A stretch of 46,741 nucleotides of DNA, from the IMG/VR virus record IMGVR_UViG_3300030397_000530, positions 1-46,741 of that record; one strand, written 5' to 3'. This document shows, piece after piece, positions 19,018 through 46,741 of this stretch. The translations under genes were made by a program, and so were the position numbers. Within the stretch, counting starts at the first letter, position 1; each line of letters starts with the position of its first letter. A model generated the notes under the pieces. The model searched no databases and was not told the origin of the DNA. It worked only from the letters and a program-made list of their open reading frames with translations. Source of the DNA: a virus (Duplodnaviria; Caudoviricetes).

Positions 19018-19304
19018 AAAACTATGCGTAAAAATTAGCGCATTGTGGGCTATTCTGAGCGAGTTTAAGACATTTTGTTCTTTCCAGGGGTTTGTATCAT
19101 TTCGCCCTTGAGTCGCTTAAAACAGCTTAAAACGCCTTAAAGATGTTTTGAAGCGGATATTAAATATCCATTCCCCCGCGAACTGCACCAAAGCAGATCA
19201 TTCCCCCGTCCCCCTAATTTTTAAAATTATCGTCCGGTCCTCTCTCAGTACATCTGTTGGGGGACTTTTGTATTTGGGGTTGGGCCGGACCAATTCTAAA
19301 TGCT

Positions 19305-20552
19305 ATGAGGGGGACATACCGACCAAGAATACCAACCTATTTTGAGCAGCATTTACCCTGGATTAGAAATCTAAGCCATGAGCAACTGTGTAACATCAGA
19401 GACAATCTAGGCGATCTATCCAATCCAGAGAGTAGCTTCACCAGGAAAAAGGAAGAAATAAAGAAGGAATCCAAAAACGGGGTTTTGTCTGTAGAGTACA
19501 AGGGACCAAAAACAATTACCACTACTGAACAGGCTGCGGAGCTTTGCGACATTGATTTAAACCAATGGGAAGCTAAAGACGGAATCTCTTTTCGGAATTG
19601 GGAAGTGACCACAAGCGAGGGCAATACCTACACTAATTATTACTTCCGGGTAGATTTCAAAAGAAAGAAAAAAGACCTGGAGCAGATCAGAGCTGCGCTG
19701 CTGGCTGATATTCCCTCTGCTCCGGTATCGAAACCCGTTCAAAGAAAAAAAAGGGCATCACAGCATCCCTATGTGGTCGAGTTTGCTATTATGGATCTGC
19801 ATTTGGGCAAGATTCCGTACACCAAAGAGGTAGAATGGAGCTTGGAGGATTCCCGCAAAGTCTATTTTGCTGCGATCTTTGACACATTGGAGCAATTAGA
19901 TACTTCGAAGATTGATCACTTTATTCTGCCTACCGGAAACGATTTTTTCAATATTGATACTCCATTCAATGCCACCACGAAAGGCACTCCGCAAATGGCC
20001 GGCATTCACTGGACTGATTTATTTTCTTTTGGTCATCAGTTGGTGAGTAGTGCCATAACTGAACTAGTGAAGATTGCACCCGTTTTTGTTTACATGGTTC
20101 CGGGTAATCATGATCAGAATAGTGTGTTTACAATGGGAGAAGTTTTGGCAGCAAGATTTGAAGGGAATAAATATGTGACAATTAATAACACGCCTATCAA
20201 AAGAAAGTATCACCGCTTCGGATTGAATCTCATTGGCTTTTCTCATGGGAATAATATCAAAGCAAAAGACGCATTCAGTGCAATGAGTACAGATCAGCCG
20301 GTCGAATTTGGACAAACGAAATTCCGATACTTTCATACCGGACACCTACACAAAAATTCAAAGCGGTGGAATGTCGATACTCAGATCAAGGATGAATACA
20401 ACGGGGTCGAAATCGAGGTCTGCCCGTCCTTGTCTCCGACCGATGTTTGGCATTATCAGAATTTATACACCGGGAACATTCGCAGGTCAAAGGCTTTTGT
20501 TTACCACCGAGATAAGGGAATGGTAAAGGAATTCAATTACACCCTTCAATAA
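19305..20552 (+). CDS. Calcineurin-like metallophosphoesterase
   Basis: DLHLG, GNDFF..D, PGNHD, SHG and GHLH motifs. ATG at 19305 (GCTATG context) is preferred to TTG at 19257. Confidence 0.88.
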   Translation: MRGTYRPRIPTYFEQHLPWIRNLSHEQLCNIRDNLGDLSNPESSFTRKKEEIKKESKNGVLSVEYKGPKTITTTEQAAELCDIDLNQWEAKDGISFRNWEVTTSEGNTYTNYYFRVDFKRKKKDLEQIRAALLADIPSAPVSKPVQRKKRASQHPYVVEFAIMDLHLGKIPYTKEVEWSLEDSRKVYFAAIFDTLEQLDTSKIDHFILPTGNDFFNIDTPFNATTKGTPQMAGIHWTDLFSFGHQLVSSAITELVKIAPVFVYMVPGNHDQNSVFTMGEVLAARFEGNKYVTINNTPIKRKYHRFGLNLIGFSHGNNIKAKDAFSAMSTDQPVEFGQTKFRYFHTGHLHKNSKRWNVDTQIKDEYNGVEIEVCPSLSPTDVWHYQNLYTGNIRRSKAFVYHRDKGMVKEFNYTLQ

Positions 20553-20885
20553 AAAAGCCGGATCAATTGACCCGGCCACAAAGCACAAAAAACGCATAAG
20601 AGCGTTCTCCAACAGCTTTAACTGAACTTCATTGCTAGTGAAAGCCGGGCCAACTTCTGCCCGGCTGCTAATAACAGATCTATTTCACTAATACAACTAT
20701 TGCCTTTCTGAAAAAGACTGCGACCGGAGTCGCAGCCCTGAGCAACTTATGCGAAAACAACTCTACTCTTCAAGTAAAAGCCAGGGCTGGAGCCCTGACC
20801 GATCGATACTAAAAGAAACTTACTCGCTGATTTTGGAAAATGGACCAGGCTGACGGATCAGCCCGATCCAATACCCCAAAAAACC
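20553..20885 (-). ncRNA. Hairpin-spacer array L1 (five GC hairpins), putative sRNA array
   Basis: Hairpins at 20557-76, 20643-66, 20716-37, 20779-800 and 20842-69. Plus-strand A.C mismatches become G.U pairs on the minus strand; two UCCG loops; each hairpin is followed by a short U-run on the minus strand. Confidence 0.55.
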
Positions 20886-20890
20886 TTCTT

Positions 20891-21442
20891 TTATCTCTTT
20901 GTTGATTCTGCATAAACCCATTTATAGCCACAAACTAGGTGGTTCTTTTTCTTTCCTGCGACATTTCTAATCGTCTGATTGTGAACACCCATTGCCCTGG
21001 CAGCCTGACCTGCCGAATAGTATGTTTTTACAATCTCGTTTGTTTCGGGGTCTAACTGGTGGACTGCTTTAGATAGTGGGTGTTTTTGAAATGCACGATC
21101 TATTAAGCCGTTGGTAATTGCGTGCCTAATATTGCTTTTGTGGCTAACCCACTCTAAATTATCCAAGCAATTATTACTCTTGTCTCCATCTATATGGTTC
21201 ACATACTCCATTCCTTCGGGCGGTCCTCCCTTAAACGAAAGCAGTACAAGCCTGTGAACTCTGGCGAATTTATACTTTCCCTTATTGCTTAACCAAATTC
21301 TGCAATACCCTTTTCTGTTTGTTTGTTGCTTTCTTATCATTGCAACTTTACCACAAAGGGACTTTATTCTCCCATAGTTTGAGATCTCATAACGCCCTTC
21401 ATAACCCAACATTGGAACAAATATTTCATCTATTTCTTGCAT
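20891..21442 (-). CDS. NUMOD4-HNH-NUMOD1 homing endonuclease
   Basis: GYEGRYEISNYGRIKS (NUMOD4), VHRLV...VNHIDGDKSNN.LDNLEWV (HNH), YYSAGQAAR (NUMOD1), GYKW. Confidence 0.92.
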   Translation of the reverse strand: MQEIDEIFVPMLGYEGRYEISNYGRIKSLCGKVAMIRKQQTNRKGYCRIWLSNKGKYKFARVHRLVLLSFKGGPPEGMEYVNHIDGDKSNNCLDNLEWVSHKSNIRHAITNGLIDRAFQKHPLSKAVHQLDPETNEIVKTYYSAGQAARAMGVHNQTIRNVAGKKKNHLVCGYKWVYAESTKR

Positions 21443-21640
21443 AAAAACAATTTGATTATCCCGCTAATTAAAGAAATGCAATTCAAGCTACCCAAAGGCC
21501 GGACCCGAACAGGTGAAGGAACAGGCCCGGCATAAAGCAAAATGAAATTAGAAAATATTAAACTCCAGTATGAAAACATGATAAATTCTTTTAAAAGGCC
21601 CGGCCAGCTTCCCAACCGAACCGGGCGTCTAGGGGGAATG
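21443..21640 (-). ncRNA. Hairpin-spacer array L2 (two hairpins), continuation of L1 across the HNH gene
   Basis: GCCGG..CCGGC at 21498-21531 and GCCCGG..CCGGGC at 21598-21626, each followed by TTT on the minus strand. Confidence 0.45.
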
Positions 21641-21642
21641 AA

Positions 21643-22962
21643 TTATCTGTTTGGCTTGCACCCATCGGAGCAATACCTATTCCTTGGACCCGCTGCCTTG
21701 AACTCAGTTCCACATCCTTTGCACTCGATTATATCTCCCTTTCTCACGCGTACGCGTGCGCGGCTACGTGCGGCTGCGCGCGCAGCTGCGCGCGCAGCTG
21801 CATTATGCGTAGGCGCGAGGGAATTACTCTTGTCTCTTTTTTTCGGAGCAGGGGAGGTGTTTTGACTCTCGATGCTCTCTCCTGCTTTGATAGCAAGCCT
21901 TGTATTCAATTCCTGGTTTTGAATTGCCATACTTGCAGTCAATCGACTAAAGGGTATTTTAATCCGATCAATGATTGCTTGAATAGTAATTGATTCTTTT
22001 ATTTCGATTCCGTTTTTACCCTGCTCCCTTCTTTTCTCAATTTTGAGCGTGAATAGGAGGAATGATAAAAGAGCCAAAGCAGGCTCCAGAAAGTTCAAAA
22101 ATACAGACAATCTTTTTCCCGCTTTACGCGCACTGTCATTGGTTGTTTCTATGTCGTTGTTTACCATTTCGACTACCTGATTTTTGGCGGCTGATTGATC
22201 CATTTTAGACTGATAGGCAAAGTCGTTTATTTTCTTTTGTAGTTCGTCTATTTCATTGTCTTTCTTTGTGATAGCTTGAGAAAAAGCCTTTAGCGTATGG
22301 CAGTTTTCACAGCGATTCAATGCAGAGTTAATACTACCTGCAAGATACTGCTTTCTGGCATAAGATGTTGTTTGATTGAGCATGGTTTCCTTTTCCCGCT
22401 TCAGTGTTGTTAGCTGATCATTCCAGGAAGCCAATAAAGGGTCTTCCGTGATGCTTTCGATCTGGTTAGCCACGATTGCTTTTTCAACCAATTCTGTCCT
22501 TTCTTGGATCGTGACTTTCTTTGATTCCTCATAGGCGTCTTTGATGAATCCATTTGATAGAAGACTTACAGTTGCAGTCAGTGCGTACAGAAAGAAAATC
22601 ACTAGCATGATACTAAACCATTTAGCTGTCTTTGGTTGAAGATCTCCGGCATGTGCCTTTTCCTGTGCAGTCTCTTTGTAAATAGCCAAAATCCCATCGA
22701 CACACATGGCAGATATAAGGGCAGTTACTATGCACCAAGCCTTGTGTAGTTCGAATGACGCTCCGATATTATATCCAGTTACTCCACTGGTGATAGCTAA
22801 AACCATATCAGGAGCTATGCTTGCGTATTTGAGCTTGGTATAACTCTGCCTGAGTGCAGTCTTATGCACAAAGTTATCATAAAGCCTAATTAACTTTCCT
22901 CCAGAGGGTATCTTTTTTTGTTGCTTGTTTTCTCCTAAATGCTCGACCTTTAATGCTTTCAT
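21643..22962 (-). CDS. Membrane protein with coiled coil, Arg/Ala linker and C-terminal zinc finger
   Basis: Three to four hydrophobic segments, a long coiled coil, CENC, and CKGC-x11-RYCSDGC at the C-terminus. Confidence 0.75.
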   Translation of the reverse strand: MKALKVEHLGENKQQKKIPSGGKLIRLYDNFVHKTALRQSYTKLKYASIAPDMVLAITSGVTGYNIGASFELHKAWCIVTALISAMCVDGILAIYKETAQEKAHAGDLQPKTAKWFSIMLVIFFLYALTATVSLLSNGFIKDAYEESKKVTIQERTELVEKAIVANQIESITEDPLLASWNDQLTTLKREKETMLNQTTSYARKQYLAGSINSALNRCENCHTLKAFSQAITKKDNEIDELQKKINDFAYQSKMDQSAAKNQVVEMVNNDIETTNDSARKAGKRLSVFLNFLEPALALLSFLLFTLKIEKRREQGKNGIEIKESITIQAIIDRIKIPFSRLTASMAIQNQELNTRLAIKAGESIESQNTSPAPKKRDKSNSLAPTHNAAARAAARAAARSRARVRVRKGDIIECKGCGTEFKAAGPRNRYCSDGCKPNR

Positions 22963-24214: not shown

Positions 24215-24964
24215 ATGAAAAGCACCAAAAATACCAAGCTAATAGAGAGCAGGTATAAACACAAAACCAAGTTATATATTTTCCTGATCTCCGCTGCACT
24301 AGCCTCTGTTAACTACCTTTTAGCTGTCATTTTTAGTGATGGACACGCTAAGGTTTACTTATTTGTAACCTGGCAGCTATTCTGGTGGTTCATGTACAGC
24401 TACTCCAAACACTTGATCAAAGACGGTATTATTCCACAAAAGACACCTACCCGGATATTTGCTATCGGTATTTCCATAAATGCCGCATTTCTGGCAGTAG
24501 GGCAGTTGATAACCAGGTGGCTAACAGATCTGCGTTTTGCTGATCCATTTTGGAAGATATTCGCCTCTGATATGGTGGCGGCCGTTTTGATCGGAGGCAT
24601 TTACTTTTACTTTAGAACACACCAGCACAATGCCAAACGCAGGAAACAGGAAATGAAAACCTATGAGGTATTAGGGAAGCGGTTGGTACTGAATCTGCGG
24701 AGTATGGAGAATTGGTCATCGATCCGGCTTGAATCAGAATACCTCTACCCAGGACTGATTGATGAAATAAAAAAAAATGGTGATTTTCCAGATATATACA
24801 TCCGTATGATCGTATATAATAAATTTGATTTCTCAGCGGCTAAAATTATGCAGATAGAAGGGATTACTCGACAAACAATGAGAAAACGGAATGAGCGAAT
24901 GAGAGACAAGGTAAGGCAGGAAACAGGCATGGAGTTGTCAGATTTCTTGCAAAAACTCGGTTAG
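24215..24964 (+). CDS. Membrane-anchored transcriptional regulator (4 TM plus LuxR-like HTH)
   Basis: Four hydrophobic helices, then FSAAKIMQIEGITRQTMRKRNERMRDKV, resembling Bacteroidota C-terminal LuxR-type HTH domains. Confidence 0.6.
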   Translation: MKSTKNTKLIESRYKHKTKLYIFLISAALASVNYLLAVIFSDGHAKVYLFVTWQLFWWFMYSYSKHLIKDGIIPQKTPTRIFAIGISINAAFLAVGQLITRWLTDLRFADPFWKIFASDMVAAVLIGGIYFYFRTHQHNAKRRKQEMKTYEVLGKRLVLNLRSMENWSSIRLESEYLYPGLIDEIKKNGDFPDIYIRMIVYNKFDFSAAKIMQIEGITRQTMRKRNERMRDKVRQETGMELSDFLQKLG

Positions 24965-25040
24965 TCACGCAATGTCACGGTCTGGTCACGATTTGTCACG
25001 GCTTGTCACGCAATGTCACAACCCGGTCACACAGGGTCAC
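24964..25040 (+). repeat. Eight helically phased GTCAC direct repeats
   Basis: GTCAC starts at 24964, 24974, 24985, 24995, 25005, 25015, 25026 and 25036. Confidence 0.92.
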
Positions 25041-28919: not shown

Positions 28920-29270
28920 TGCAGGGCCCGGTTAGACTTCCGGGCTTAATTTGAATGATTTTCGTTTTTTCATATAGGTTTAATGATTGATTCCGGCTGC
29001 AAGGTCGCGCAGCCGGTTTTCTTTGAAAAGGTTACCAGGGTTTATTTTTTCATGTGCAAATTGATTGAAGTTTTTGGGGTTTACCGTCCGGTCACTGAGG
29101 CCGGACCTTTTCAAAGAAAGAGAGGTTATAGGTAATAGGGTTTAAGCATGTTTCTAGCCGGGCTTTTGTGATTGGATCGGCCCGGCTTTATTTGAAAAGT
29201 TGGTTTTCGTTTGATACTCACCAGGGGCGCAATTATTTTCTCTCGGTTAGGGAATTGCCCCTGGTTAATT
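28920..29270 (+). ncRNA. Hairpin-spacer array R (five GC hairpins), putative sRNA array
   Basis: Hairpins at 28924-47, 28993-29016, 29086-106, 29156-87 and 29220-65, separated by U/G-rich spacers. Four are followed by TT..GAA. Confidence 0.55.
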
Positions 29271-30114: not shown

Positions 30115-30264
30115 CGGTCGGTTTGATAGCATGATAATTCATTATTAAGTATAGCCACAGGCGGCTTAAGGGCTTTCGGATAAATGACCAGCCCGGATGT
30201 AAGAAGACAATCAGAGTAACCAGATCGAAAGGGATGCCGCCGCCTTTTCGGTCGATTTAGCAGC

Positions 30265-30432
30265 ATGGAAAAAGAGGAATTAATACAGGTAATAACAGAA
30301 CTCAGGGTCTTACACGACTGCAAAGATAGCCTAACAGAACACGGAGAGTCTGAATATATTAGGCTGAAAGAATTATTACTTGATCACTTGTTAGACCTCA
30401 AAGAATTAATTAACCAACCGGCCCAGTCATAG
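30265..30432 (+). CDS. Cassette hypothetical protein (55 aa)
   Basis: MEKEELIQVITELRVLHDCK...NQPAQS fills the space between two GGTCG sites. Confidence 0.55.
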   Translation: MEKEELIQVITELRVLHDCKDSLTEHGESEYIRLKELLLDHLLDLKELINQPAQS

Positions 30433-30800: not shown

Positions 30801-30864
30801 TATTAGAAAAAGGTTAACCTTGATAATTTTAAGAAATATTAAAGTGTAATGGCTTTTGTGTAAT
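30801..30864 (+). repeat. res-like direct repeat, copy A
   Basis: 57/64 identical to 41144-41207, which lies directly upstream of the resolvase gene. Confidence 0.9.
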
Positions 30865-31405: not shown

Positions 31406-32302
31406 ATGAATACACTAAAGAAAATCTTATCCAGGTTAGTCGGAAATGCCAACACGCTATCCAATAACGTTCTGTTTATTGACTTCACCGGATCACACGA
31501 AAAAGGCCAGTATTTGAGCCAGTTATTTTACTGGAGCGGGAAGACCAAAATGAAGGATGGTTTTTTCGCCAAAAGCTATGCCGATTGGTACGAAGAAATC
31601 CGAATAAAAGAACATAGTATCAGGAGATACACGAAGGAATTTAAGTCATTCGGCTGGCTCGAAACAAAGGTTGTGAAATTCAATAAAGTGCCAACTCTGC
31701 ACTACAAATTAGACCAGGATAAATTAATCACTGCACTGGTGACATTTTGCGATACTGACAATTTGCGACCCTCACACGGTGCAAGGGTGGACCCTGACAA
31801 TTTGCAAGGGTCCAGGGAACCTGACACTGTGCAAGGGTCCATTAACAGAGACTTACATAGATTACATACAGAGAGAGAACGCGCGCACGAAAAAGAAAAT
31901 AATATCCAACCTAAACAAAATAATAACCCTCCAAAAGTTGCGCTAAAAGGTTCCCTGGATATTAACCCGCTGAAATACGAATCCACCGCGATCTTTTTTG
32001 CCAATCAATTACAAAAGACTTTCCCGACATCCATCAAGGAGCTACAAAACATAGTCGGCGGTAAAATCGGAGAGCATATCAAATCCTATTTCCGGAACCT
32101 ACAGAAAAAGGACGAATGGTATCAATTACAGGAACCAGACGAATCCAGGATGAATTCATGGATCTCCAAGCACTATGCCGGAGTAGAAATGTGGCTAAAG
32201 AATGAAAAGAAGTTTTGGCCAACCAAAGAAGATAAAAACAAAGTCAGATACGAAGCACCAAAAAATGTTTTCACTGCTGATCAGTTGAAAAAATCCGCAT
32301 GA
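31406..32302 (+). CDS. Replication initiator (lambda O-like, winged helix)
   Basis: LSQLFYWS...DGFFAKSY..W.EE HTH; internal iterons; directly upstream of DnaB. Confidence 0.8.
   Translation: MNTLKKILSRLVGNANTLSNNVLFIDFTGSHEKGQYLSQLFYWSGKTKMKDGFFAKSYADWYEEIRIKEHSIRRYTKEFKSFGWLETKVVKFNKVPTLHYKLDQDKLITALVTFCDTDNLRPSHGARVDPDNLQGSREPDTVQGSINRDLHRLHTERERAHEKENNIQPKQNNNPPKVALKGSLDINPLKYESTAIFFANQLQKTFPTSIKELQNIVGGKIGEHIKSYFRNLQKKDEWYQLQEPDESRMNSWISKHYAGVEMWLKNEKKFWPTKEDKNKVRYEAPKNVFTADQLKKSA
31739..31930 (+). other. Putative origin of replication (iterons plus A-rich tract)
   Basis: TGACAnnnTGC(AAGGGTCC)-like repeats at about 31740, 31756, 31772, 31795 and 31822 inside the initiator gene, followed by an A-rich tract at 31890-31930. 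Confidence 0.7.
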
Positions 32303-41143: not shown

Positions 41144-41254
41144 TATTAGAAAAAGGTCAAGTTAGCGAATTTTAAGAAATATTAAAGTGTAATGACTTTT
41201 GTGTAATCTGATCCAAAAAGGGTAAAATTGCACCATTACGGATAATTTCGTAAC
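41144..41254. promoter_or_regulatory. res-like site, copy B, overlapping the resolvase and late promoters
   Basis: 41144-41207 repeats copy A; an extra inverted repeat, ATTACG..CGTAAC, lies at 41235-54. The site begins 20 nt upstream of the resolvase ATG. Confidence 0.65.
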
Positions 41255-41322: not shown

Positions 41323-41718
41323 ATGATTTTGAAAACACTATCAGGAAACACTAAAAATAATACTGCACAAAGCAGATCGCTATCCTCTGGCGATCAGAAG
41401 TTCTGTAATTCGCGAAGATGGCGAAAGACTTCTGTTGACTATCGCAAAGAGAAGCCGCTTTGCGAAAACTGCCTTAACAAAGACCGCGCTACACCCTCAC
41501 ACGTAACTGATCATATTATTCCCGAATCTCAAGGCGGCTCAAAATTTGATCCAGATAACCACATGGCATTATGTGACAGCAGAGGTGGCTCATCCTGGAA
41601 ATGCCATGATCGAAAAAGAGGCATGGAGAAGAATCAGCCGATTGTTGCGTACAAAGAAAACAAGGACGGTGAATTAATTCCAATAAACAGAGAAGATGTA
41701 TTTAATGTACTCCCATGA
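41323..41718 (+). CDS. HNH endonuclease (terminase-associated, HK97 gp74-like)
   Basis: RRWRK.S......PLCENC......VTDHIIP...GG..FD..N..ALC...CH..K. Confidence 0.88.
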   Translation: MILKTLSGNTKNNTAQSRSLSSGDQKFCNSRRWRKTSVDYRKEKPLCENCLNKDRATPSHVTDHIIPESQGGSKFDPDNHMALCDSRGGSSWKCHDRKRGMEKNQPIVAYKENKDGELIPINREDVFNVLP

Positions 41719-42437
41719 AAATATTACTACTGATAGCAGCATGGCAGCGACATGAAACTGCTCGGATAACCTACCAGCAATTAATGCAGGTAGAAACAGA
41801 ATGGAATAATCTAGGCATTACACTCATTCCGCTTGTAATTTGCAGCAACTCAGAAGATGCTGCTCTGGCTAATTCGTTCGGGTTCATCACCTATTATCAC
41901 AAAAACTCACCACTTGGCGAAAAGATGAATGCAGGGCTGAAAAGAGCCCTAGAATTCAAGTGTGACTACATCATGCAGCTAGGTAGCGATGATCTGTTAG
42001 ATGCAAACCTCATTAATTTCTATTTAGATCCCTTGCTTAGAAAGTCGCCTTTCTTTGGCCTTTCATCTCTGTATTTCTATGATCAACAAGGCGACCGGCT
42101 AAAGGAATTGCAATTAACAAATGTTATTGGGGCAGGACGGTGTATAAGGCGTGACATTTGCGAATTTATGTCTGAGAATTTCGGCCTGTGGTATTACAGG
42201 ACTGAAAAGGGATTAGATAATGACAGCGAGGCCCGCATTTATGACTTCATGGGGTTTGAGCAACATAGAGTGCAATATATCAAAACACCAACTCCGATGA
42301 TCCTGGACATCAAAGATGGTGAAAATCTGCATTCTTTTGATGATTGGGGATCAGCCAATGGAGAGCAGCAGCGAATGATTGAGGGAGGCGAAAAAGCAGG
42401 GGTATTAAGAAGATTTGGAATGAACAAAGGCGAATGA
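41715..42437 (+). CDS. Glycosyltransferase, GT-A fold
   Basis: LIAAWQR, PLGEKMNAGL, YIMQLGSDDL, GAGR and GLD motifs. Confidence 0.72.
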   Translation: MKILLLIAAWQRHETARITYQQLMQVETEWNNLGITLIPLVICSNSEDAALANSFGFITYYHKNSPLGEKMNAGLKRALEFKCDYIMQLGSDDLLDANLINFYLDPLLRKSPFFGLSSLYFYDQQGDRLKELQLTNVIGAGRCIRRDICEFMSENFGLWYYRTEKGLDNDSEARIYDFMGFEQHRVQYIKTPTPMILDIKDGENLHSFDDWGSANGEQQRMIEGGEKAGVLRRFGMNKGE

Positions 42438-43024
42438 TAAAAGTCATCGGAACTGGATCTGGCCGCTGTGGAACAACTAGCCTTGCGGAATTACTGGATA
42501 AACAACCATGTATTGTGTCATGCACACATGAGTTATTCCGGTTTAATATTCCCTATCCTGGTAGCCAGAGCAGTAAAGCGCAGGGAAATGCCTTAGCAAA
42601 AGCAATGATAGAAAACGAAGGATGCGACGTGGCCCTGCAATGGCTCTGGTATGCTTCGATCTTTATCAATGCTGGCTACAAGATTATTTGCCTACAGCGC
42701 AACAAACGGGAAACGATTAAATCATTTGAGCGCAAATTAACTCCATTTGCCTACAATCATTTTAGCGAAAAGGACGGCAACCCCTCGCCCTGGGATCAGT
42801 GCTTTCCAAAGTTCAAAGAAAGGACACTCAAGGTAGGGGTTAACAAATACTACGACATGTTTTATTTCCAGGCTAGATTTCTGGCAAGACAATCTGATCG
42901 GTTCAGGATATTCGATAGCTCAAAGGTTCTGAATAATGCTGAAGCACAAAAAGAAATGCTGAACTGGATTGGTATTGAAGATCCGGTAATTGATACAGGG
43001 ATAAGAAAAAACGCATTGGCATGA
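42434..43024 (+). CDS. Sulfotransferase-like P-loop protein
   Basis: KVIGTGSGRCGTTSL..LL (5'-PSB loop), HE, IICLQR...TIKS (3'-PB). Confidence 0.75.
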   Translation: MIKVIGTGSGRCGTTSLAELLDKQPCIVSCTHELFRFNIPYPGSQSSKAQGNALAKAMIENEGCDVALQWLWYASIFINAGYKIICLQRNKRETIKSFERKLTPFAYNHFSEKDGNPSPWDQCFPKFKERTLKVGVNKYYDMFYFQARFLARQSDRFRIFDSSKVLNNAEAQKEMLNWIGIEDPVIDTGIRKNALA

Positions 43025-43743
43025 ATTACGCATTTGCCATAACCACCTTTTTAAGACCGAACAGCTTTAAAAACTGCCTGGAATCGGTTCGAGAATTCTA
43101 TCCGGATATTCCGATATACGTAGCTGATGATAGCGACGATCAAAGCTATCATGATAATCCGGACTATGAACTGATCTCGCTGCCATTTAATCAGGGAATC
43201 AGCGTAAAGCGAAATGTAATTGCACAACAGGCCAAAGAAGATATACTGATTTATTTCGACGATGATTTTGCATTAGATGATAAAGAAGCTATTGAAAAAC
43301 TGATTACTCCAGTTTGGTTAGATCAGTGCGATTTATGTGCCGGCAGTGTGGCGAATAACGGCGAGAAAGTAAAATACGAAGGTCGATTCTATCAAAATGG
43401 CAATACGTTGGAAGTCCAGGCAGAGGCAACGCATATCAAAACAAACTACCTGGAAACGGACCTGGTGCAAAACTTCTTCGCTGCAAAACGGTCTACATTG
43501 CTCCTCAATGCGTGGGATGACGATTTAAAGATTGGAGAACACATTTTTTTCTTTCATGACGCCTGGAAAACCGGAATGCGTGTCTGGTGGTGCAATGATT
43601 CTGTTATCCCACATGTGCAGGAAGAAAATGCCAGATACATGATGTTTAGAGACACATTCCGAAAATATCAATTAGAAGGCATGAAGAAAAGAGGCATAAG
43701 CGAATTAATAAACCATATTAACGGATCAAATATAAAGCTATGA
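43021..43743 (+). CDS. Glycosyltransferase family 2
   Basis: ITTFLRP...CLES, IYVADDS, GIS.KRN, YFDDDF, NFF, WD..LK.GEH..FF. Confidence 0.88.
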   Translation: MNYAFAITTFLRPNSFKNCLESVREFYPDIPIYVADDSDDQSYHDNPDYELISLPFNQGISVKRNVIAQQAKEDILIYFDDDFALDDKEAIEKLITPVWLDQCDLCAGSVANNGEKVKYEGRFYQNGNTLEVQAEATHIKTNYLETDLVQNFFAAKRSTLLLNAWDDDLKIGEHIFFFHDAWKTGMRVWWCNDSVIPHVQEENARYMMFRDTFRKYQLEGMKKRGISELINHINGSNIKL

Positions 43744-44111
43744 GCTATCGGCAGTATGTAGACAAGGGTAAAGAAACCGACCTGAGCAGCATTGTTGTTC
43801 CAAGCGAAGCTGTCAATGTGTTGTATAACAGAAACCAAACAATTGGCTCTGCATTTGTAAACAGGGACTCAACCGGCATAATGGCTGAGATTAATCTGAA
43901 TGAAATACCCTCTAATGCGGAGCTGTACCCTGTTATAATTGTGCAGCACAATCGCCTAGTGTCGATAAGCCTGAATCCTGAGCGAAATGCAGACCGGACA
44001 ATCAAGGCAATTCAGTTTGTGACGAGCGACGTGATTGAAAAGGAGATCGCGAAAGATGTTCTGAGTGGATTCGAGACATTCGGTAGTGCTATTTTAAGCG
44101 AAGAAGAGTAA
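43740..44111 (+). CDS. Hypothetical protein
   Basis: 123 aa; ATGA overlap with the upstream stop. Confidence 0.65.
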   Translation: MSYRQYVDKGKETDLSSIVVPSEAVNVLYNRNQTIGSAFVNRDSTGIMAEINLNEIPSNAELYPVIIVQHNRLVSISLNPERNADRTIKAIQFVTSDVIEKEIAKDVLSGFETFGSAILSEEE

Positions 44112-44115
44112 GGCT

Positions 44116-44316
44116 ATGCTTAATTCCCCAAACTTTAAAATATCATTTTCTAACCGCATGGGTCTTGCTGTGCGTAGGGCGTCTTACTCGCTAGTAGAAC
44201 TTTCTATCGCGATTTACTTAATAGATAATAATTACGAATCAGCTCTTAATCGAATTCCTGACCTTATAGAAAATTATGTTGATTTGAAGATTTTAGAATT
44301 GAATCAAGATGAATAG
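44116..44316 (+). CDS. Hypothetical protein
   Basis: 66 aa, operonic spacing. Confidence 0.5.
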   Translation: MLNSPNFKISFSNRMGLAVRRASYSLVELSIAIYLIDNNYESALNRIPDLIENYVDLKILELNQDE

Positions 44317-44842
44317 ACGCAGCTTTATAAATAGATCATTATTAGCTGGATTTGGAGCAATGCTACTAACGCCAAATGTAGCAAAGACCCTTGCTATTAA
44401 AAAGAATGCACCAAAAGATCAGGTCAAGGTAATTGGTAATCTGATTGAATTTAATGCCGATTGGCAGGTAAAAATATCCGAGCATTTAGTATTCAAATCA
44501 GATCAGTGTTCCGATTATTATTTCTCCCATCAAAGCCACCGCTGTCGGTACTCAATAGATAAGAACACAGAGATTAAAAAGATACCTGTTAATAGCATAG
44601 ACAAGGTAAGGCTGATCGAGGGCGAGGCAAGGATTATTGATAGTGGCTTTATTTTGGATACCAAAACCTGTTTCCGCTTAGTGGACAACCAAGAACTCAC
44701 GACATTGAAGCTCAATACAATTCATGGCAAATCTCTGGTTTTTGATGCCTACATGACTTCATTGAGCGTTACAGTAGGATCTGGGCAATTTGCGGAAAAA
44801 GATTTAGAGTTTGTAATTACAGGCGCAATACAACTAATGTAA
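44309..44842 (+). CDS. Twin-arginine signal protein with tail-tube-like C-terminus
   Basis: MNRRSFINRSLLAGFGAMLL Tat motif; C-terminal FDAYMTSLSVTVGSGQFAEKDLEFVITGAI. Confidence 0.6.
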   Translation: MNRRSFINRSLLAGFGAMLLTPNVAKTLAIKKNAPKDQVKVIGNLIEFNADWQVKISEHLVFKSDQCSDYYFSHQSHRCRYSIDKNTEIKKIPVNSIDKVRLIEGEARIIDSGFILDTKTCFRLVDNQELTTLKLNTIHGKSLVFDAYMTSLSVTVGSGQFAEKDLEFVITGAIQLM

Positions 44843-44854
44843 AAATACAAAGCT

Positions 44855-45256
44855 ATGAAACACGACACTAAAACACTCATACTGTTATTCGGGTACATCA
44901 TTCTGGTATTCTCTTTCTGCCAATGCAATCAAGGTGATCCGGTTCAACCGATTTGCGACTACACGCACGAAGTTCAATTCAATAATTACGTGTGGGATGT
45001 TATAGTAGACGGGGAAAGCCTGAAAGACAACCCGGCCTTTGATTTTCCATACACAACCGCTGTACCTGGATTAATCGAATCAGATTTGAATACCTGGTTA
45101 AATAGCGATGGCATTGCTGCTGTGACCATAACGAGTCCGGAAAGAGGCTTTTTAATTGTGGTAGAGGAAACGGATAAGGTCTTTGAATCGGTTATATTCT
45201 CAGGAGATAACAGCGGAGGTAATCAGGTTGTGATTGAGTTTATTCAAAGTTGCTGA
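44855..45256 (+). CDS. Putative lipoprotein
   Basis: Hydrophobic N-terminus ending FSFCQC; acidic beta-rich body. Confidence 0.6.
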   Translation: MKHDTKTLILLFGYIILVFSFCQCNQGDPVQPICDYTHEVQFNNYVWDVIVDGESLKDNPAFDFPYTTAVPGLIESDLNTWLNSDGIAAVTITSPERGFLIVVEETDKVFESVIFSGDNSGGNQVVIEFIQSC

Positions 45257-45810
45257 TTTTGAAAAAAGAACAATACAAAGAGCAATTAATGGGCTTGCCT
45301 GAATTAAGCCAAGATCAAAGAGAGGATTCCGTTGATCTGATAGCGGCACTGTTGAGCGAAGCTGACGAATTAAGGAAGATGTTAAGCGATTCAGGGTTGC
45401 GAGTTACTGGACAGCCACCACTACCAATTGTGCAAGGTTTAATTGAAAGAGCAAAACCGAGGATAGAGGAAGAAAAAGTGATTGCAGTAATCAAGAACGG
45501 GCAGCAAATACTGTATTCAGAACAAGGTGAGCGATTGAATTATTTAGCCAGAACAGTAATTGTTGATAGCCCAGAACACAAAGAATGTGAGTTTGAGATG
45601 CTTGTTGATGGCGATTTAGGAACACCAGAACTGCCACAATGGACAACCGAGAAGCATGAAAAATACGATGGTATTTATTACCTGGTTTCTCCGCTCGGTG
45701 TAAAACACGCGTTCAGCCGCTTGTTTGTGCCGTTTCAGGTTAATGACGAAACCAGAGTGCAGATACAATGCGCTGTGGAATTAAGGAATGAACCACCAAA
45801 AGCAGAATAA
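45250..45810 (+). CDS. Hypothetical protein
   Basis: 186-aa ORF; start uncertain. Confidence 0.6.
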   Translation: MLILKKEQYKEQLMGLPELSQDQREDSVDLIAALLSEADELRKMLSDSGLRVTGQPPLPIVQGLIERAKPRIEEEKVIAVIKNGQQILYSEQGERLNYLARTVIVDSPEHKECEFEMLVDGDLGTPELPQWTTEKHEKYDGIYYLVSPLGVKHAFSRLFVPFQVNDETRVQIQCAVELRNEPPKAE

Positions 45811-45812
45811 AC

Positions 45813-46010
45813 ATGGAAAAGAAGAAGCAAACAGACAAACCTAAAGGGCCGCCACCACCTAAAGGGCCGCCACCGAGGATAATAACGCCAAAGCCAAGAC
45901 TAATAATGGAGCCAAGTAGTGTTGACTATGGATTGGGATTAGGCTGGTTCAAGTATCCAATTATTGGCGGACTTATCGCATTACTTGGTTATTTGTTCAC
46001 GCAATTATAA
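45813..46010 (+). CDS. Small Pro-rich, C-terminally anchored membrane protein
   Basis: PKGPPP twice from an 18-bp tandem duplication (45839-45874); C-terminal TM segment. Confidence 0.55.
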   Translation: MEKKKQTDKPKGPPPPKGPPPRIITPKPRLIMEPSSVDYGLGLGWFKYPIIGGLIALLGYLFTQL

Positions 46011-46017
46011 GACGCAA

Positions 46018-46287
46018 ATGAGCGAACTAAAGGATTTCATTGATCATCATTTCATAGGCGATGCAGCAAGAGCGATCATCGGGCAATTGGGTGACTCAGA
46101 AGAGTGGGTTATTGGTCAATATCAGGTGCTACACATCTCAGGCATTACGTTATGGACCACCAATGGAATGCACTTTGTTTATGAAGTATCTACCAAAAAG
46201 AGATTCAATGTATTCGAGAAAGCTGCAATATGGAGAGCAATAAACAGAATGAAATCAGAGAAGATTAAACTAACACTAAATGAATAG
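46018..46287 (+). CDS. Hypothetical protein
   Basis: ATG at 46018, 7 nt after the upstream stop. Confidence 0.55.
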   Translation: MSELKDFIDHHFIGDAARAIIGQLGDSEEWVIGQYQVLHISGITLWTTNGMHFVYEVSTKKRFNVFEKAAIWRAINRMKSEKIKLTLNE

Positions 46288-46724
46288 TAAGTCACGACCA
46301 CTAATAAGATACTGGAACAGCCAGCAATACCAGGTTTCTTTTCTTGGCATCCCCAAAACAGGAAGCAGCACTGTTCGGAAGATACTAGGCATCGACACTG
46401 AAAGCGAATGGAGCCTGCAACCAGAGTACAGCCAGGTTTTCACCGTACTCAGAGAGCCGACAGAGCGAATCAAAAGCGGATACCAGGAATGCAAGCGCAG
46501 AAGAACATTAAGACCAGGGACGACTTGCTTTGGATCTTTTGTGAAGAGTATAGAACAATGCGACTTCTTTGATGAGCATATAAGACCAATGAGTTACTAC
46601 TTCAATGATCAGGTTAGTCATGTGTTCGCCCTTGATAACTTGTCTACATTATGGAGTTGGTTGAACATCGTTCTGGTCAATGATATAAAAGAGAATGCAA
46701 GCAAAGCATACGATATTGGGACGA
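46280..46724 (+). CDS. Sulfotransferase family 2 protein (3'-truncated)
   Basis: FLGIPKTGSSTV (5'-PSB), VLREPTERIKSGY (3'-PB), FDEHIRPM. The apparent stop lies within the primer artefact. Confidence 0.85.
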
Positions 46725-46741
46725 GATCGTGACTGGGAAAC
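46725..46741 (-). other. Random-amplification (SISPA / Round A-B) primer artefact
   Basis: GATCGTGACTGGGAAAC is the exact reverse complement of primer GTTTCCCAGTCACGATC and forms the contig end. Confidence 0.92.

Follow-up and report, generated by a model that had tools for sequence, protein, structure and literature searches.

To our knowledge, the phage small RNAs described so far are single molecules from enterobacterial and a few other phages, and the messages of Bacteroidota are without the usual Shine-Dalgarno signal. In Bacteroides thetaiotaomicron, the FopS small RNAs are built from a promoter, an anti-start seed and a terminator; the available portions of the FopS report describe a GUGUUUUUCAUAG seed at the 5' end that binds near susC start codons and represses translation, association with RbpB through the 5' part, and one occurrence in a phage (PMC11697453). 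Phage lambda encodes PreS (LPR1), a small RNA that, according to the accessible part of its preprint, pairs in trans upstream of the start codon of host dnaN (bioRxiv 10.1101/2024.10.31.621285), and AgvB of the EHEC prophage Sp5 is outlined, in the available sections of a 2025 review of phage small RNAs, as a prophage RNA that interferes with the host small-RNA network (PMC12197685). The words 'array', 'tandem' and 'Bacteroid' do not occur in those sections of the review, and in the mostly open-access literature that we searched, neither phage small RNAs stacked in tandem nor small RNAs of Saprospiraceae were described.

Here we analysed a whole virus record of 46,741 bases (the window) from a tailed, temperate phage. 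Its portal, capsid and tail genes run rightward up to 20552, a rightward early block carries RecT, a NinB-like gene, DnaB and an integrase, and a leftward early operon ends at 21643, with a stack of hairpins (20553-21640) at the junction of this operon and the end of the late block (Table 1). The stack is a real, conserved RNA element, and we put at roughly even the chance that it is a series of tandem FopS-like small RNAs, taken in part from the host and predicted to repress host translation. The hosts of the phage are likely Saprospiraceae bacteria, as judged from a related prophage in G404 with a like gene order and from the sequence kinship of a stack unit. The integrase-resolvase region, used as a host probe, matched 0/301 host-family genomes, the NinB-like alignment search matched 0/301 genomes of the order, and close relatives sought by single proteins (the 439-aa protein, RecT and DnaB) were not found. 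The host-family genome sample for the family of G404 includes Flavilitoribacter nigricans.

Table 1 The leftward hairpin stack, its spacers and neighbouring features. Positions are those of the window; X5 is an independent relative of the phage, and families 1 and 2 are host elements described in the text.
Feature	Position	Strand	Remarks
Last gene of the rightward virion/late block	19257-20552	+	Convergent on the leftward stack
Hairpin 1	20556-20577	-	Final hairpin, with the longest U-run; host-family genomes have nearly identical terminators; kept in X5
Spacer before hairpin 1	20578-20642	-	U-rich, without a CAT-type anti-start
Hairpin 2	20643-20666	-	By folding
Spacer before hairpin 2	20667-20713	-	Similar to the 3' end of family 1 seeds over its last 10 bases, though not significantly (P 0.18)
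Hairpin 3	20714-20739	-	UCCG loop; replaced in X5
Spacer before hairpin 3	20740-20778	-	Complementary to an ATG reading MRKQLY
Hairpin 4	20779-20800	-	Replaced in X5
Hairpin 5	20841-20870	-	13 pairs, UCCG loop
13-base motif GGUUUUUUGGGGU	20873-20885	-	3' half of the family 2 seed; anti-AUG half missing
NUMOD4-HNH-NUMOD1 homing-endonuclease-type gene	20891-21442	-	183 aa, by domain search; splits the stack
Hairpin 6	21498-21531	-	With its spacer, second-best match of model R3, E 0.42
Spacer before hairpin 6	21532-21596	-	Contains UUUUCAU (anti-AUGAAAA), a FopS-type core
Hairpin 7	21597-21626	-	Separated by 17 bases from the stop of the 439-aa gene
439-aa gene, function not assigned	21643-22962	-	Last protein gene upstream of the stack, leftward early operon
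Sister stack, rightward early operon	28924-29266	+	Four strong hairpins, one weak

Several other features of the genome were recorded. No tRNA genes were found in the 46,741 bases. The middle of the 439-aa gene (21947-22516), whose protein had no homolog in the protein search, has a depth ~10-30x that of its surroundings in runs X1, X3 and X4, and on this account the segment appears to be common to a more abundant element. A 64-base direct repeat (30801-30864 and 41144-41207, 89% alike) has one copy just upstream of a serine resolvase gene, and these 64 bases recur, with different flanks, in further contigs of X1, X3 and X5; the repeat is a possible recombination site. A cluster after an HNH gene (41715-46732) includes a family 2 glycosyltransferase and two weak sulfotransferase matches. 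Short tandem repeats comprise a GTCAC-rich pair at 24958-25030, after the gene at 24215-24964, and three 26-base copies at 31766-31841, inside the gene at 31406-32302, and these are possibly origin iterons.

A first-pass annotation of this DNA had described seven hairpins in the stack, and our folding check recovered all of them in place. Its argument that they form in minus-strand RNA is borne out by six hairpins, which fold 4-9 kcal/mol better on that strand; hairpin 2 folds equally well on either (-17.2 vs -17.1). The two UCCG loops it had named are present, on hairpins 3 and 5, and so is the short U-run after each hairpin, of 3-6 U on the minus strand with no U-run on the plus strand. The annotation had, however, treated the hairpins as one continuous array; hairpins 5 and 6 are instead separated by an HNH gene of 552 bases, which divides the set into five and two. 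Its domains (NUMOD4, E 5.6e-10; HNH_3, E 4.3e-11; NUMOD1, E 2.9e-4, the last below its cut-off) are those of NUMOD4-HNH homing endonucleases, and the gene would be a later insertion into the stack. The 538 non-coding bases hold seven hairpins, compared to a mean of 0.36 and a maximum of 3 in 200 dinucleotide shuffles, and the leftward stack contributes 7/25 of the minus-strand hairpins of the genome. Over 20540-20900 the folding energy is -138.4 kcal/mol on the minus strand (z -5.9) and -93.1 kcal/mol on the plus strand. The leftward operon likely ends at hairpin 1, as its last intrinsic terminator. No match of the stack to Rfam was found at gathering score, and none that was meaningful up to E 10. 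Folding of each tail back on its own seed was predicted for hairpins 2, 5 and 6 and was rejected as a feature of the units, as it was not above that of swapped tails (P 0.37 for 11 units, 0.12 for the leftward stack and 0.16 for 20 units of relatives).

The stack turns over in modules between relatives, as seen by comparison with X5, which is one independent relative, a run from another study, known as contigs only. No RNA run was among those listed as matching the stack region. An X5 contig matches 20546-20681, 20834-20885 and 21545-21641; hairpins 1, 2, 5 and 7 are kept and the units between are exchanged: 87 different letters stand where hairpins 3-4 would be, and 20886-21544, with the HNH gene and hairpin 6, gives way to 353 different letters. 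The neighbouring late gene is also swapped for other sequence. Across 20834-20885 the two phages are identical (52/52), and identity stops exactly at the edge of a G-run motif, at 20885. Among the substitutions listed, 12/14 lie in spacers and 2/14 in stems, and there are 9 further differences near the piece ends. The stem change at 20644 (hairpin 2) converts G-C to G-U and so keeps the pairing on the minus strand only, and the one at 21604 (hairpin 7) converts G-U to A-U on the minus strand. The spacer before hairpin 1 has taken 9 substitutions and 5 indels around an unchanged core, and the longest plus-strand frame, of 107 codons, is disrupted by the insertion of a single base behind 21588. 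A second X5 contig retains the sister stack, with indels in its spacers.

The spacers are rich in U on the transcribed strand (41% in the leftward stack and 42% in the sister stack), as compared to 23% in the genes of the operon and in 15 co-oriented intergenic stretches. This bias opposes the normal sense-strand bias of the genome, and U-rich spacers mirror the A-rich start regions of these bacteria. The heptamer UUUUCAU is present in 3/10 spacers of both stacks where 0.2 would be expected (1/6 leftward, 2/4 sister); a further spacer of the sister stack carries the G-run motif of family 2. The spacer before hairpin 3 resembles the 5' half of the family 2 seed with P 0.017, uncorrected and one of 26 tests. 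Start-like ATGs on the non-transcribed strand had been pointed out earlier at 20749, 21476, 21542 and 21570. They are present at these positions, but they are not in excess (3/6 spacers, 3.3 expected, P 0.77), nor do they look like starts: with a start-site matrix built from 441 predicted starts, they score -3.1, -0.8 and 0.8, whereas the median of 39 real starts of this phage is 4.5 (P 0.73).

Two families of elements in Saprospiraceae genomes bear on the origin of the units. The G404 prophage has one two-hairpin chain, and a spacer of this prophage matched a second place in the host, itself a seed with a terminator, which led to the discovery of family 1. The family 1 seed gave 37 matches in five genomes versus 3 in the control; 13/30 of the matches fetched were seed-terminator units, and 7/30 were starts of long ORFs with ends that look signal-peptide-like by inspection. 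A model of 12 host copies (R1) matches a unit of the L527 prophage (E 7.5e-5) and L081 (E 0.0019). It has no match in the leftward or sister stack, and a matrix of family 1 seeds did not single out the stacks either. The seed occurs in 15 viral stretches, at least six times directly before a hairpin, three of those within longer chains, and chains that bear family 1 adjoin tRNA genes in L624 and L632. Multicopy chromosomal loci of family 1 (L573, L575, L576, L583, L585, L599, L602, L610, L615 and L618) show two seed types, anti-MK and anti-MNI, and no Rfam match. As 7/8 RRM protein genes begin with MNIF, RRM protein mRNAs are a possible target of family 1; for rbp mRNAs, pairing of 11-12 bases across the start codon is possible, and this candidate was rejected with duplex ranks that are unremarkable among 353 starts.

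Family 2 links the host elements to the stack itself. There are exactly two copies of UUUUGGGGU in the 46.7-kb genome, one per stack, each on the transcribed strand just 5' of a hairpin (hairpin 5 of the leftward stack and hairpin 3 of the sister stack). The G-run motif gave 55 matches in five host genomes versus 13 in the control, and 8/30 of those fetched were seed-terminator units and 0/30 were starts. The full family 2 seed is found in 75/101 Saprospiraceae genomes (110 matches, 1 in the control), and the genome collection as a whole has it in about 990 stretches; among the family 2 matches listed (80), nearly all are titled Saprospiraceae or wider Bacteroidota ranks. A terminator-type hairpin lies within 20 bases in 128/133 host copies, its stem covaries (7/8 pairs changed on both sides), a promoter lies within 150 bases in 38/133 copies, and 24/133 have a base that would not pair with the A of AUG. 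Host copies are sometimes tandem (L776, L787). The chromosomal loci (L773-L802, L835-L955) have a nearly invariant seed, come from several cultured species among others, and have no Rfam match.

The hairpin-5 unit is the top match in the phage genome for models of 31 host copies (E 0.0019 and 0.0015), a result that is partly circular, with rough E-values, because family 2 was reached by searching hosts with a 12-mer from the phage genome. The design of the search did not dictate that the 12-mer would belong to an element present across the family, or that its position ahead of a terminator would be the same there. For the host-copy model, 7/11 top matches lie in the two stacks, and the hairpin-6 unit comes second (E 0.42). 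As in family 2, the hairpin-5 unit has the G-run motif directly 5' of a terminator hairpin, and relative to the host copy L780 it lacks 10 bases, including the anti-AUG part; as judged from this alignment, the unit is a truncated relative of family 2 and not a full member. Intact family 2 units are present in the phages L632, L804 and L807, and intact units of family 1 or 2 stand in the phage hairpin chains of L114, L621, L624, L632 and L804 and in the related prophage L527. Two conserved families, likely of small RNAs and without an Rfam model, are exposed in Saprospiraceae, and since one of them is carried by the cultured Flavilitoribacter nigricans and Neolewinella aquimaris, its expression and targets are directly testable.

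Comparable chains occur in other phages. Among 169 loci with NinB-like proteins, chains of GC-hairpins with U-rich spacers were found in L001, L081 and L114. Scanning for pairs of promoter motifs separated by about the length of a unit yielded 85 stretches, and 19/61 distinct ones have a hairpin between the promoters. From 12 phage records, which were fetched whole or nearly so and chosen from the promoter-scan matches plus G003 and G004, together with L081, we collected 27 promoter-seed-terminator units. CAT is present in 21/27 of them versus 9.0 expected, and UUUCAU in 6/27 versus 0.6 expected; the units were collected without requiring CAT, two of them from a record first found by a CAT pattern. 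The promoter-bearing units of other phages had no convincing targets in their own genomes.

Further observations were made on these chains. In L411, L478, L420 and L436, two to three promoter-seed-terminator units stand right after a gene resembling a major tail/capsid gene, with seeds that differ between the phage families. In four related phages, tRNA genes (mostly Met) lie in or beside the hairpin chains (L001, 11376-11449; L081, 2569-2640; L624, 3224-3296; L632, 3150-3224 and 3387-3461), and tRNA processing could release chain units. In the phage studied here, the minus strand at 30234-30328 has a lone promoter-seed-hairpin unit with a TATCTTTG motif and without CAT, antisense to the rightward early block.

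Pattern scans were less productive. One gave a single clear array (L240 and its duplicate) among 120 loci, a second gave no array among 113 loci, and a further scan gave 2/91 with two hairpins, neither array-like. Another, with 7 loci, picked up an unrelated Alistipes leader element and was discarded; the multicopy leader element of Alistipes (L514, L515, L517, L519 and L520) is bracketed by two TATCTTTG-type motifs and lies upstream of metabolic genes. BLAST of the stacks and L240 against cultured phages returned HNH matches or chance matches only. The first-pass annotation had argued for a general system of minus-strand modules. At the level of a class this is supported, by the phage chains, the CAT excess and the match to a Saprospiraceae element; the evidence that it had offered does not carry the claim, with ATGs at chance level and the HNH gene missed.

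We propose that RNA of the leftward early operon would read through into the stack, within which the minus strand (20553-21640) has no TAnnTTTG, which we take to be the promoter consensus. Each spacer would then serve as a seed and each hairpin as a leaky terminator, and partial termination at the hairpins together with nuclease trimming would generate short seed-plus-terminator RNAs. The predicted targets of these RNAs are the A-rich start regions of host mRNAs, where pairing would lower translation; by analogy with FopS, the proteins affected would be secreted and outer-membrane ones with frames that open with MK codons. Some of the units may descend from host small RNAs that were subsequently re-seeded or truncated.

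Target prediction against candidate hosts, as suggested by the first-pass annotation, found none in 201-301 genomes of the likely host family, and such tests are weak since the true host of the phage is absent from the genomes identified. With the whole stack region, no target above control was found in 301 family genomes. The MRKQLY-type spacer gave 9 host matches versus 17 in the control, 3/9 of them at the starts of three different long ORFs. The core of the hairpin-1 spacer gave 54 versus 49, with 0/20 of those fetched near a start, and a sister-stack seed gave 1 versus 2 (five genomes). The anti-start half of family 2 gave 10 versus 5, of which three are the elements themselves and one is at a long-ORF start.

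Other explanations would account for part of these observations. The units could be decoys: once transcribed, they would imitate host small RNAs and sequester an RbpB-type RRM protein or a nuclease, and so shift host regulation with no specific mRNA pairing involved. The best-kept part of the hairpin-5 unit is indeed the G-run motif, which is exact in X5 and complementary to no start seen (0/30), while the anti-AUG half is gone; RRM proteins are encoded in 5/5 host-family genomes tested, and FopS, in what is available of that work, bind RbpB in their 5' part. A decoy for a single protein, however, does not need diverse spacers that turn over between relatives, and most phage copies of host elements retain the anti-AUG half. 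On balance we consider the decoy explanation improbable.

It is likewise unlikely, in our estimation, that the stack is a set of leaky terminators and decayed remnants that insulate the convergent operons and keep HNH expression weak, with the likeness to small RNAs surviving from host sequence that was once captured. The operon that contains the sister stack is co-directional, and insulation is not needed there. The same motif stands before a hairpin in both stacks and nowhere else in the genome, relatives keep such chains, often beside tRNA genes, and the U bias is contrary to that of sense strands in this genome. These points have to be set against the location of the stack between convergent early and late operons, its short U-runs and chance-level ATGs, the faster drift of spacers than of stems in X5, and the truncated seed of hairpin 5, a fragment that ends six bases from the HNH stop codon.

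The P1 c4 and P4 CI RNAs regulate the phage's own genes in trans, and similar action of the stack RNAs on genes of this phage appears very improbable. The hairpin-6 spacer does match 46239-46271 better than 30/30 shuffles, but at the middle of this match is a methionine inside a 107-aa frame and not a gene start. The other 9 spacers of both stacks match no better than shuffles, and 4/44 seeds beat all 30 shuffles where about 1.4 would be expected. No targets were found in the phage's own genome, as covered by a contig without part of the packaging region. We give hardly any credence to the plus-strand ATGs as real micro-genes with the minus-strand RNA as their cis antisense partner, the type I toxin-antitoxin layout of AapA/IsoA: the four ATGs do stand in A-rich context, and the frames that they begin have 34, 19, 107 and 3 codons, but by inspection none encodes the short hydrophobic peptide of a type I system, the 34- and 19-codon frames lie in segments replaced in X5, the 107-codon frame is hit by the one-base insertion there, the start scores are poor, and opposite-strand frames of the promoter-bearing units in other phages are mostly short, of unrelated lengths, or antisense into tail genes.

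Beyond the reading of the stack as tandem FopS-like small RNAs, we tentatively put forward a wider proposal, which we regard as possible rather than probable. Bacteroidota phages may capture host anti-start small-RNA scaffolds, stack them in early operons as multiplexed, protein-free guide cassettes, and exchange seeds from lineage to lineage so that chosen sets of host genes for surface, secretion or defence functions are silenced. The two stacks would then belong to a widespread and hitherto undescribed class, in other forms of which each unit has its own promoter or the units adjoin tRNA genes that may cut them free. If true, phages would have in such a tandem, modular cassette, made from small-RNA parts of the host, a new means to reprogram host translation.

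Among known systems, CRISPR arrays also alternate structured and variable segments and gain and lose units, as the stack does. Unlike in CRISPR, the hairpins of the stack are not sequence repeats and its spacers run from ~40 to 66 bases, that is, conserved direct repeats and even spacers are lacking, and no cas genes were found among 59 proteins scanned. AgvB is a model for the decoy explanation, with the difference that AgvB, in the available account of it, mimics the mRNA targets of GcvB, whereas the stack units resemble host small RNAs. The build of the units is that of FopS (and GibS); as far as the available parts of the FopS report describe them, FopS share one seed, are scattered and have their own sigma-ABfr promoters, whereas the stack units stand head to tail at an operon end, with differing spacers and no internal promoter consensus. 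The FopS-type core is found in 1/6 leftward-stack spacers, with flanks that differ from the 5' end of FopS-10 in the portion available, and unlike FopS the stack has its host kin in two Saprospiraceae elements without an Rfam match. The stack therefore falls outside FopS membership, as it has no promoter of its own and diverse seeds. PreS resembles the proposed stack RNAs in being a small RNA of a temperate phage that acts on a host message, and differs from them, in the accessible part of its preprint, as a single, Hfq-associated, activating RNA without tandem organization that has been experimentally tested; on that account, it is the nearest tested example of a trans-acting phage RNA.
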